Source of the DNA: Candidatus Wukongarchaeum yapensis
Lineage (GTDB): Archaea; Asgardarchaeota; Wukongarchaeia; Wukongarchaeales; Wukongarchaeaceae
Length of the DNA stretch: 7,445 bases
Reading direction: 5' to 3'
NCBI GenBank assembly: GCA_016840425.1
Contig: JAEOSI010000110.1
Location: forward strand, 1 to 7,445
The position numbers and the translations under genes were made by a program. Below the pieces are notes generated by a model. That model had not been told where the DNA came from. It ran no database searches and saw nothing but the letters and a program-made list of their open reading frames with translations. Shown here piece by piece: positions 4,555 to 7,236 of the stretch. How positions within the stretch are numbered: position 1 is the first letter of the stretch; each line of letters begins with the position of its first letter.

Positions 4555-6480
4555 ATGCGTTTTAAACGGGGTTTATTGTGTTTTACGTTCCTTTCTTTGA
4601 TGATAGGCACCATATTTCTTTTTCCTTTTGTGATGGACAGCGTTAGTGGGATCCATGGAGAGGAAGGCTTAATAGACGAGGGAAAGGGAGGTTTGGAGGG
4701 GGCAGGGACAACGGGGGTTGTTTCTAGGTCTTTGCCTGAAAATTTGACTTTGAGCGTTAATCGTACGATTACGGTTAATATCTTTGGTCTGGTTTTGATT
4801 GAAGATAACTACCTTTTTAATGATACTCGAGTAGATGGTGCTGAGGCTCAGAATGTGACGCTTATTTTGGCTATAAGGGCAGGTGATGCTTCTAAATTGA
4901 GTTATACAAAGGTTTTTGATTATGAGACTAATGAGACCGCTGCTTTAAGGCTTGAAGAGGAGATGGATAATTACACCTATTATTCTTTTAATGTTACAAA
5001 TATTGGGGGAAATACGGCGAGAGAGATAGGTGTTTGGTCAGGATTTGCATACTATATTGAAACATCTTTGAGAGGTGGTGACCAATATTTTGCGCTTAAT
5101 ACATCTCTTTATCCTGTTATTAATGCGGAGATTTTTAATTCTACGATAACTTTTGAGTTGCCTGAGGGTGTTGGCGAGCCTGTTTGGGATCAGACTTTAC
5201 CAGTGAACTTTACGCATACCGCACCTTTCACTTTTAACGGTACAACTGCTAATATTTCGGCTTTTAATGATACGGCTTTTTATCTTGTTTATACTTCGAA
5301 TACGCCTATTATTCATTATAGTCGGGTTGAATCTAATCTTGATGTGAGTCCTTATGGGTATGTTCATGTGAGGGATGAATATTGGATTCAAACTCTTACA
5401 CCGAACACCGACATAAATAACAGAAACTTTCAGATTGGTGAGGTCTCGATACGGCTTCCCGGATACGCTGAGAGTGTTACGGTTAAGGATAGTGTAGGCA
5501 GATTAGCCGATGTAGAGCCTCAAGAGGTAGAGAATAAAACCCTCGTAGTGATTGATTTTAGGACTCCTTTAATTGTTGAAAATAATAGTTATCATTTAAC
5601 TGTAACTTATAAGTATCATTTAAGCGAGGCTTTAGAAAATGACGGCAATAAGTATCGGTTGACTACGTGGATTCTCTCTTCGTTTAACTGGACGATTGAA
5701 GAGTTTGTTTTAAAGATTACTTTGCCTGAGGGAGCCAGCGGCATAAACCCTTCAAGCGATGTTTCTTCCCTTGATCTTGGAAGTTTTAAGGTGGATTCTC
5801 AGCCCGCTTTTCTACACATCGGTAGCCGTCCTGTATTGAAAATTACGTTGAAAAAGTTGTTGCCCTGGCATCATACTACAGCTTTTCAGGTTGAGTATAA
5901 TTACTCTTGGTTAAATAAACTGAAAATGCCTTTACTTATTATCCTTGCTTGTTTTGGCGTAGGTTTGATGTATGTAGGTGTTAGGTCTTTAGCGGGGAAA
6001 ACAAAAATCGGGGTGGTTGTCAAGCCTACTCGGCTGGAAATGATCCCGGTGGATATCCTTGAAAGTTTGACTAAAAATTATGAGGAAAAACTGGCGCTAA
6101 AGAATCAGGTGAAGGAGCTTGGGGAAAAGGCTCGAAGAAGAAAAATATCAAAAGCTTCTTACGTTAAACAAAGAAGAACCTTTGAAAAGAGAATTGAGAG
6201 TTTGCAATCAACTTTAAACACAGTAACTTCCCAAGCTAGGAAGTATGGCAAGAGGTATGTGGAGATCCTCAGAACTTTAGATCTAACCGAGGCTGAAAAA
6301 GATACCATAGAACAGAGTATAAAAGATTTAGATCGAAGAAAGAGGGAACGAAAGATAAAGAAGGAGACTTACGAATCATTAAAGAAGGATTTAAATAAGC
6401 GTTTAACACGTTGTGAGAGAACCTTAAACAAGACCCTTTTAGATTTAAGGGAAGAACTTGAAAGAAGAAGAGTAAAATAA
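4555..6480 (+). CDS. Ribophorin I (RPN1/Ost1)-like oligosaccharyltransferase accessory subunit, type I membrane glycoprotein
   Basis: N-terminal signal helix; beta-rich ectodomain with ribophorin-I-like segments (DVSPYGYVHVRDEY, LPGYAESVTVKDSVG, DFRTPL, ITLPEGA, SRPVLKI...H...FQVEYNY....LKMPL); single TM helix at 5926-5982; basic helical cytoplasmic tail; 17 ectodomain N-X-S/T sequons. GGTGA SD at 4540-4544 supports ATG 4555 over TTG 4501. Confidence 0.78.
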   Translation: MRFKRGLLCFTFLSLMIGTIFLFPFVMDSVSGIHGEEGLIDEGKGGLEGAGTTGVVSRSLPENLTLSVNRTITVNIFGLVLIEDNYLFNDTRVDGAEAQNVTLILAIRAGDASKLSYTKVFDYETNETAALRLEEEMDNYTYYSFNVTNIGGNTAREIGVWSGFAYYIETSLRGGDQYFALNTSLYPVINAEIFNSTITFELPEGVGEPVWDQTLPVNFTHTAPFTFNGTTANISAFNDTAFYLVYTSNTPIIHYSRVESNLDVSPYGYVHVRDEYWIQTLTPNTDINNRNFQIGEVSIRLPGYAESVTVKDSVGRLADVEPQEVENKTLVVIDFRTPLIVENNSYHLTVTYKYHLSEALENDGNKYRLTTWILSSFNWTIEEFVLKITLPEGASGINPSSDVSSLDLGSFKVDSQPAFLHIGSRPVLKITLKKLLPWHHTTAFQVEYNYSWLNKLKMPLLIILACFGVGLMYVGVRSLAGKTKIGVVVKPTRLEMIPVDILESLTKNYEEKLALKNQVKELGEKARRRKISKASYVKQRRTFEKRIESLQSTLNTVTSQARKYGKRYVEILRTLDLTEAEKDTIEQSIKDLDRRKRERKIKKETYESLKKDLNKRLTRCERTLNKTLLDLREELERRRVK

Positions 6481-6570
6481 AACTTAGAAAGGCATCCCAT
6501 AGTTGTTATGGCTCAACTGTTTAATGAGCGAAAGAAAGATTTAAAAGAAGGGCGGTCTTAATTTTTACGG

Positions 6571-6722
6571 CATCGGGGGTTTTTAAAGAGCAGTGATAGC
6601 CCCATAAAAGCCTAGAAATCTTAGAGAAGAACACGCTAAAAACACTCCCATTAGAAAAATCTTCCTAAGAAAGGGGTTTCCTGATTCCTTCCTTTGAATC
6701 CTGCTTAAAAAACCCCCCGATG
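6571..6722. other. Unannotated 152-nt element closed by a ~22-nt imperfect inverted repeat, with nested internal helices (candidate ncRNA)
   Basis: CATCGGGGGTTTTTAAAGAGCAG (6571-6593) pairs with CTGCTTAAAAAACCCCCCGATG (6701-6722). Four further internal helices were found by hand. Confidence 0.5.
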
Positions 6723-6875
6723 TAATCCTTTTAACAACAAATTTTTAGGTTTCTAGACAAGCTTTAAACTGGTGTTAAACCTGTTTTTTCAAATTGTAGA
6801 AAGCAAATCTTAGCCTTCATATTCATAATAATCTTGCCTTAGATGTCTAACTACGTTTAATAATCAAAAAGCATC

Positions 6876-6882
6876 AAAAAAA
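6876..6882 (-). terminator. Oligo-T (T7) terminator downstream of tRNA-Gln
   Basis: Seven A on the + strand about 20 nt past the tRNA 3' end, with a second A5 tract at 6866-6870. Confidence 0.5.
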
Positions 6883-6903
6883 GCCTGTTTAGTGATTTTA
6901 TTA

Positions 6904-7007
6904 TGGTAGCCCGGGCCAGATTCGAACTGGCGTTTCAGGGTCCAAAGCCCTGAATGCTTAACCGTAAAACTTTTTTTGCGTTTCTTTGGCCGCTACACCA
7001 CCGGGCT
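6904..7007 (-). tRNA. trnQ: tRNA-Gln (anticodon TTG) with a 28-nt intron in the D-loop (position 21/22; 6958-6985) and encoded CCA
   Basis: Minus strand reads AGCCCGG TG GTGT AGCGGCCAA [AGAAACGCAAAAAAAGTTTTACGGTTAA] GCAT T CAGGG CTTTGGA CCCTG AAAC GCCAG TTCGAAT CTGGC CCGGGCT A CCA. The mature product is 76 nt and all stems pair. A1-U72 is typical of archaeal tRNA-Gln. Confidence 0.95.
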
Positions 7008-7050
7008 TTCAAGGTTTTAGTATTAGTAAGATCTTCTAACATTGACACAG

Positions 7051-7060
7051 TTTTAATAAA
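7051..7060 (-). promoter_or_regulatory. Putative TATA box of the tRNA gene
   Basis: TTTATTAAAA on the minus strand, 44-53 nt upstream of the mature tRNA 5' end. Confidence 0.4.
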
Positions 7061-7236
7061 CAGCAAACTATTTTATATTTATTCATTTCAGAATTTAAAA
7101 AATTTTTACATTTTTAGGTTTTTGGTTGGATTAACTTAACTTATTGTTGGCAGAAGAAAAAATAAAATCGGTTCCAAACGCTTTATTAAAGTTATATATC
7201 AGAGAGAATAAAACTTGAACGGGGAGATGTAGATGC

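Follow-up and report, generated by a model that had tools for sequence, protein, structure and literature searches.

A conserved structured element on the + strand beside a ribophorin-like gene of an Asgard archaeon, possibly antisense to a gelsolin mRNA leader

What is the structured stretch of 154 nt that lies between a ribophorin-like gene and a tRNA gene in the Asgard archaeon Candidatus Wukongarchaeum yapensis? An earlier note, made from the DNA letters only, had folded it by hand into five helices (P1 to P5) and proposed a novel structured ncRNA or 3'-UTR element, possibly with a K-turn for L7Ae, with a MITE remnant as the alternative. It had named folding against shuffles, an Rfam scan, BLAST within the genome and complementarity to rRNA or tRNA as checks. 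The DNA analysed here (the window) is a whole contig of 7,445 nt from a genome bin of 2.16 Mb (277 contigs, 92% complete, 38% G+C); the gene content of this host genome is that of a typical Asgard archaeon. The features that we discuss are collected in Table 1. The placement of the element was borne out on both sides. Its start is 90 nt downstream of the stop codon of the ribophorin gene (6480), on the same strand, and it sits in a gap of 425 nt between that codon and a tRNA gene, which is real, is convergent on the - strand and scores 26.2 bits in Rfam.

Table 1. Features of the locus, with positions in the window
Feature	Position	Strand	Basis or detail
Ribophorin I-like protein gene, 659 aa	4501..6480	+	ORF; Pfam PF04597 Ribophorin_I, E 2.4e-24
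Putative archaeal promoter: purine-rich BRE-like stretch, then TATA-like TTTAAAAG (6540-6547)	6534..6547	+	sequence
Structured element, 154 nt	6570..6723	+	folding z -5.29; consensus fold with sister-species contig L063; 137/154 identical to L063
P1a 5' arm	6570..6579	+	pairs with 6714-6723, 10 bp
P1b 5' arm	6588..6593	+	pairs with 6701-6706, 6 bp
P2 5' arm (RRCCCC)	6598..6603	+	pairs with GGGGUU 6673-6678
Long arm	6619..6670	+	P3 6619-6630/6660-6670, P4 6636-6639/6651-6654
Stretch antisense to gelsolin-1 mRNA leader (-36..-13)	6620..6644	+	24/25 bases, exact 18-mer 6627-6644
46-nt block	6637..6682	+	zero differences between window and L063
P5 hairpin	6683..6700	+	in MFE fold of the window, not conserved
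T-tracts, candidate archaeal termination signals	6731..6749	+	T4 6731-6734, T5 6745-6749; L063 keeps TTTT, with T6 further on; function putative
Convergent tRNA gene, probably Gln(UUG), with insert in D-loop region	6904..7007 (about)	-	Rfam tRNA model, anticodon loop CUUUGGA

We found that all five hand-drawn helices were present in the minimum free energy (MFE) fold that RNAfold gave for 6571-6722 on the + strand. This fold reached -46.0 kcal/mol, compared with -28.0 +/- 3.4 for 200 dinucleotide shuffles, none of which was as good (z -5.29, 0/200). The - strand of the same interval folded to -48.0 kcal/mol against -38.3 +/- 3.8 for its shuffles (z -2.55, 4/200 as good); its weaker z is explained by the fact that shuffles of the G/U-rich - strand fold well themselves. 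The outer nine pairs of P1 are perfect, as had been drawn, and a tenth pair (G6570-U6723) extends them by one base on each side. The G-U pairs 6588/6706 and 6599/6677, which had been described as working on the + strand only, indeed become C-A mismatches on the - strand. P2 has a competitor, an alternative hairpin of 6671-6678 with 6683-6690. At the apex of the long arm, positions 6631-6635 and 6641-6650 are predicted to be open, with an unpaired probability of ~0.9 or more. A cmscan of the whole window with Rfam 15 at E <= 1 returned only the tRNA (6915-6971, -); no family was matched over 6570-6723.

BLAST of 6540-6760 against the host genome gave only the element itself as a significant match, the next being a 25-nt piece (E 0.0014), and two covariance models (R1 and R2) also matched only the element there. 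It is therefore single-copy in the 2.16-Mb assembly, in which, at 92% completeness and 277 contigs, repeats could be under-assembled. Searches elsewhere were negative: BLAST of 6480-6910 against 41 genomes returned only chance pieces of 20-40 nt, R1 found no copy outside the element itself in 60 other Asgard genomes (61 with the host), and exact 22-mers of the invariant part had no match in genome_contigs (two scans) or viral_contigs. R2, built from two sequences, was run on 150 other genomes (151 with the host), and its best foreign match (24.8 bits, per-genome E 0.0038) is at chance level because 150 genomes were searched. The three best foreign matches of this model contained many non-canonical pairs, and the one checked for context lay inside an ORF.

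Relatives came from metagenomes. A protein-seeded scan of metagenome contigs yielded two contigs, L063 and L064, with ribophorins 83-84% identical to that of the window and with the same order of ribophorin gene, element and tRNA. L063 and L064 show no difference from one another where they align, and therefore count as one additional (sister) species, with ~13% DNA divergence from the window. Contigs from three public DNA runs (X6, X7 and X16) carried two strain-level variants of the element. The one other genome of the same genus (G001, 87% complete) contained no copy, but it is uninformative either way, since a contig end truncates its ribophorin gene after codon 49 and its sole match to the window tRNA is a Gln(CUG) paralogue in another context. 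As far as these data reach, the element is confined to one genus-level Asgard lineage.

The tRNA gene and the spacer before it gave several observations of their own. The tRNA was matched by Rfam over 6915-6971 (-), below the cut-off of 29 bits, and ARAGORN with default settings called no tRNA in the window; with the intron option it called a doubtful Arg(ACG) with a 7-nt intron. Both the low score and the default miss are due to the insert. This insert, of ~25 nt, is also found in the sister species, with a different sequence. The paralogue in G001 (contig C36, 828-930; anticodon CUG read directly from the sequence) is 83% identical to the window tRNA, carries an insert at the same D-loop position and has a different gene neighbourhood. 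In the whole host genome, ARAGORN with the intron option called 18 tRNAs only, 16 of them with introns; standard settings probably miss many tRNAs of this lineage. L063 lacks ~100 nt of the spacer that separates element and tRNA in the window (~6800-6900). A motif AAAGCCTGTTTA...TTTTA adjoins the tRNA, and a weaker repeat of it lies at 6777-6799. One contig from a metatranscriptome library (run X20; 171 nt, depth 2.8, 4 differences) spans 6762-6932 only and leaves the element uncovered. It reaches from the spacer into the 3' part of the tRNA, and may represent a tRNA precursor or trailer, or DNA carry-over.

Comparison with the sister species showed that both sequence and pairing are conserved. 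Overall identity of the element to L063 is 89%, rising to 94% (82/87) in its 3' half. As yardsticks, third codon positions of the ribophorin gene are 77.8% identical, the spacer 6481-6533 68% (36/53), the region 7009-7236 77% and the tRNA 95% (97/102). Window and L063 have the same apical loop sequence in the long arm, and the L063 prediction leaves the apex similarly open. On its + strand the L063 element folded with z -3.10 (0/200 shuffles as good) and on its - strand with z -1.34 (20/200 as good). Both the MFE fold of L063 and the two-sequence consensus chose the alternative hairpin over P2.

When the 37 pairs of P1a, P1b, P2, P3 and P4 were scored in the window and L063, 72 of 74 cells were paired, against 36-58% when the partners were slid by 1-3 columns. 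One pair had changed on both sides and seven on one side while still being paired. This evidence comes from two distinct species sequences and two strain variants, and with n=2 the shuffle control was flat (260/500). In P1a, 6571/6722 is C-G in the window and U-A in L063, and 6570/6723 is G-U in the window and G-C in L063, X6, X7 and X16. The change 6715 C>T in X6 and X16 gives a G-U pair, as does the strain change 6712 A>G (partners taken from the MFE fold of the window). In P1b, L063 has A-U for G-U at 6588 and U-G for C-G at 6591, the latter paired on the + strand only. P2 shows G-U for A-U at 6598 and A-U for G-U at 6599, and in P4, C-G at 6636 becomes U-G. At eight one-sided sites (6570/6723, 6588, 6591, 6598, 6599 and 6636, and in strains 6712 and 6715) both states pair on the + strand and one of them is a C-A mismatch on the - strand.

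Not all of the fold was preserved equally. The lower six pairs of P3 are invariant; in upper P3, changes at 6626, 6628 and 6629 break two pairs in the fixed register, and a register shift by one base would restore pairing with four Watson-Crick pairs kept. The three-base strain change TGA>GTT at 6594-6596 (X6 and X16) breaks either of the pairings proposed for 6595-6596. P5, which had been drawn as one of the helices, failed as a conserved one: L063 carries the changes 6683 G>A and 6696 G>A, so that its + strand has A-C mismatches in place of both G-C pairs of the window, and the pairing persists as G-U on the - strand. One of these changes also strengthens the alternative hairpin 6671-6678/6683-6690. 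Taken together, the z-score, the lack of an Rfam match, the single copy, the conservation above neutral-like sites and the changes that preserve pairing on the + strand only support a structured + strand RNA, and we regard selection on such a structure as likely. The structured element outside known families stands from the earlier proposal, as either a separate gene or part of the ribophorin 3' UTR.

Sequences around the element suggest how it could be transcribed. The TATA-like TTTAAAAG starts 30 nt upstream of G6570, where the pairing of the element begins. Identity to L063 is 14/16 over 6534-6549 against 36/53 over 6481-6533, and by comparison with the archaeal consensus 6534-6547 is a putative promoter. 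No clear consensus emerged when the regions upstream of tRNAs served as the template for a promoter. A G+C-rich patch GGGCGGTCTT (6550-6559) lies after the TATA-like box and before the element; it is 9/10 identical in L063 and falls outside the promoter reading. A T5 tract before the element (6562-6566) is lost in L063, X6 and X16, so that read-through from the ribophorin gene is possible. The transcript probably ends at the T-tract 6731-6734, judging from the sequence.

A candidate target came from the second-best BLAST match of the element in its own genome. The stretch 6620-6644 matches contig C23 of the host (8573-8596) at 24/25 bases on the same DNA strand. This site lies before gelsolin-1, a - strand gene (AUG at C23:8560) whose product of 195 aa contains two Gelsolin repeats by Pfam (E 1.3e-24); a second gelsolin gene follows it in tandem. 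As the match is on the + strand and the gene on the opposite one, an RNA from the + strand of the element would be antisense to gelsolin-1 mRNA, and the predicted duplex abuts the Shine-Dalgarno GGAG of this mRNA. Perfect sites of the 18-mer number exactly two in the host genome, the element and the gelsolin leader. G001 has one perfect 18-mer, in its own gelsolin leader, with one change within the 24-nt site; it also has four near-matches to the 18-mer, of which two were examined and one lay in coding sequence. The leader of gelsolin-1 is apparently ~80-90 nt long, with a TATA-like ATAAATAT ~105 nt upstream of the AUG; over its last 40 nt, the host genome and G001 agree at 38/40 positions.

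The significance of this match depended on how it was scored, with p from 0.007 to 0.09. Gapped blastn over the whole genome gave 6/300 shuffles as good, and exact-run blastn-short 26/300. A wobble-aware local alignment against -45..+15 of 2284 ORFs (>= 100 aa) scored 67, with 4/624 shuffles as good, in a restriction to 5' regions that was chosen after seeing the gelsolin match. The gelsolin site came 4th when the whole genome was scanned in tiles with a permissive, wobble-aware scoring, which was too loose and produced long spurious alignments. The predicted duplex energy with the gelsolin leader was -55.7 kcal/mol, against -44.8 for the next-best region, and co-folding with the leader predicted a net gain of -6 kcal/mol. 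When the L063 version of the element was compared with the leaders of the host, the gelsolin leader again ranked first (64 vs 55). At the same time, no other part of the element varies as much as the antisense stretch: L063 has a different base at 4 of the 18 positions of the exact match, and the complementarity that L063 retains was matched or beaten by 24% of random transition sets. An inverted duplication of a longer gelsolin 5' fragment was rejected, as the flanks of the 25-nt core were no better than shuffles (388/2000 and 2000/2000 as good). The seed-like apex is predicted to be unpaired in both the window and L063. We consider it possible, though doubtful, that gelsolin mRNA is the true target of the predicted RNA.

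Our preferred explanation is a lineage-specific regulatory RNA from the + strand that would act through the gelsolin leader, and to the whole of it we give a probability of roughly 40%. In this explanation, of which we infer the transcription, the RNA ends and the regulatory effect, an RNA of ~155-165 nt would run from about G6570 to the T-tract 6731-6734. It would arise from its own TATA/BRE promoter (6534-6547), or be cut from or carried on the 3' UTR of the ribophorin mRNA. P1a (10 bp) and P1b would clamp both ends and carry a junction with the P3/P4 long arm and the G-rich segment 6673-6678, which could pair with either of two C/U-rich partners, in P2 or in the hairpin 6671-6690. In the long arm, the weakly paired apex (6631-6650) would nucleate antisense pairing with the gelsolin-1 leader, on the first of two tandem two-domain gelsolin mRNAs, and the duplex over -36..-13 beside GGAG would change the translation or stability of an actin regulator. 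The strongest form of the idea, that an Asgard archaeon might control a two-domain gelsolin with a dedicated hairpin antisense RNA whose targeting arm carries a copy of part of the leader, seems unlikely to us.

Several other readings of the locus have to be set against this regulatory RNA. In one of them the element belongs to the 3' UTR of the ribophorin mRNA as a structured segment with a role in cis (3'-end protection, stability, termination or localisation of this membrane-protein mRNA) rather than in trans as an RNA of its own. The short same-strand distance of 90 nt from the ribophorin stop fits this reading, as do the loss in L063, X6 and X16 of the T5 (6562-6566) that could have ended the mRNA, the retention of T-tracts after the element, and the ribophorin-element order kept in L063 and L064. 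It is nevertheless improbable in our view, given a TATA-like box and purine-rich stretch at canonical distance, better conserved than the preceding spacer, and a helix that closes exactly at the predicted start. Both of these points would be compatible with a 3' UTR origin as well, and the own-promoter and 3' UTR readings may both hold, as in a 3' UTR-derived sRNA. A different weight is placed on the 3' half if the element is a protein-binding or scaffold RNA with its function in the invariant 3' half (6637-6722), the gelsolin match being chance or a relic of a duplicated fragment. The 46-nt invariant block, a 3' half as conserved as the tRNA, the variability of the antisense stretch and the dependence of the gelsolin p values on scoring all point this way. 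We still find it rather unlikely, because the 24/25 match falls exactly beside a ribosome-binding site in antisense orientation, the element showed no known protein-binding motif, its K-turn-like strings are unconserved and no Rfam family was matched. That the functional product comes from the - strand, as an RNA or as a small ORF of 22 codons (ATG at 6651, stop ~6584), is scarcely credible. This strand folds too (-48 kcal/mol), keeps the P5 pairing through G-U and contains a short hydrophobic ORF; against it stand its z of -2.55, falling to -1.34 with 20/200 shuffles as good in L063, and the C-A mismatches that the eight one-sided changes leave on it. The ORF as such was rejected: L063 shows ~8 amino-acid changes against 1 synonymous change and has lost the stop codon.

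The remaining readings assign the element to known classes, and each of them is less likely than the regulatory RNA. The note had pointed to a box C-like GUGAUAG (6593-6599) and a box D CUGA (6681-6684) flanking the arm. Both strings are present in the window, and L063 even has a perfect GUGAUGA, but they are kept in neither the sister species nor the strains: the box C of the window is flawed, L063 has CUAA for box D, and X6 and X16 carry the TGA>GTT change at 6594-6596. A C/D box sRNA (RUGAUGA and CUGA required) was therefore rejected, as both boxes are intact in no genome seen, and the K-turn reading falls with it. Upstream of box D/D', guides of this type have 10-12 nt that can pair with rRNA or tRNA. 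In the element, uninterrupted Watson-Crick complementarity reached at most 9 nt with 16S, 9 nt with 23S and 7 nt with the neighbouring tRNA, with 14, 29 and 23 of 40 shuffles as good, and the element, at ~155 nt, has ~3 times the usual length of archaeal C/D sRNAs. A C/D-like or other L7Ae K-turn guide is thus the least likely of all readings considered. An H/ACA sRNA was rejected too: P1 is followed by GAUGUAAUCC and not by an ACA, the lower stem and loop take ~37 nt per side compared with an H/ACA spacing of ~14-15 nt, and no Rfam H/ACA model matched. Two further candidates were discarded, a SECIS (there is no stop codon within the ribophorin reading frame that could be recoded, and Rfam gave no match) and a miRNA-like precursor loaded into Argonaute (PF02171 had 0 matches in the 92% complete host genome). 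Finally, a fossil palindromic mobile element (MITE or IS200/IS605-type mini-element), or another DNA palindrome free of RNA function, would account for the 9-10 bp inverted repeats at the ends, for the T/A runs after them and for the overall hairpin layout. We think it very unlikely. The element has one copy in its genome and none in 150 other Asgard genomes, the exact 22-mers of its invariant part are absent from genome_contigs and viral_contigs, and it occupies the same site in a ~13% diverged species, more conserved than neutral-like sites. As the note had stated, no target-site duplication is seen (flanks ...TTTTTACG|G and U|AATCCTT, with no direct repeat), and one-sided changes that give wobbles on one strand are not expected from selection on a DNA palindrome.

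The regulatory RNA reading would make the element a candidate for an orphan RNA family whose fold is clear, whose position is conserved and for which a specific putative target can be named. Gelsolin, which regulates actin, is among the genes that make Asgard archaea interesting for the origin of eukaryotes. If the target link is true, the element would offer a first way into the post-transcriptional control of the Asgard cytoskeleton; if the antisense reading holds, a eukaryote-signature cytoskeleton gene would be riboregulated, in the closest archaeal relatives of eukaryotes, by an undescribed RNA family. If the link is false, what stays is an ordinary lineage-specific structured RNA of two species. 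The listings and opening lines of abstracts returned by a literature search described no regulatory small RNAs of Asgard archaea.

The element can be compared with four kinds of known system. With MITEs and IS200/IS605 palindromic mini-elements it shares a terminal inverted repeat and a hairpin shape, but it differs from them in its single copy, the lack of a target-site duplication, its fixed syntenic position, purifying selection and strand-specific wobbles. Archaeal C/D box sRNAs resemble it in box-like strings and in pairing of the 5' and 3' ends, whereas in the element the boxes are unconserved, no guide complementarity was found and the size is ~3 times larger. Bacterial 3' UTR-derived sRNAs and those with C-rich loops, such as RsaE/RoxS, are a further comparison: like them, the element lies just after a coding gene on the same strand, and its C/U-rich motifs GCCCCA, CUCCCA and UUCC, together with the apical CACUCC, could pair with G-rich ribosome-binding sites. 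Unlike them it is archaeal and non-homologous (no Rfam match at E up to 1), and its C-rich motifs are partly sequestered by its own GGGG segment. Archaeal trans-acting antisense sRNAs were also compared, such as sRNA162 and sRNA41 of Methanosarcina mazei, which pair with 5' leaders and ribosome-binding sites of mRNAs. The element is like these in being a candidate small intergenic RNA with a stable terminal structure and, by prediction, in exposing a loop complementary to a leader near the Shine-Dalgarno sequence of an mRNA encoded elsewhere; it is unlike them in belonging to an Asgard lineage with no sequence or Rfam relationship to either, in its unusually long contiguous complementarity (24/25), in its greater length and in its three-way junction.
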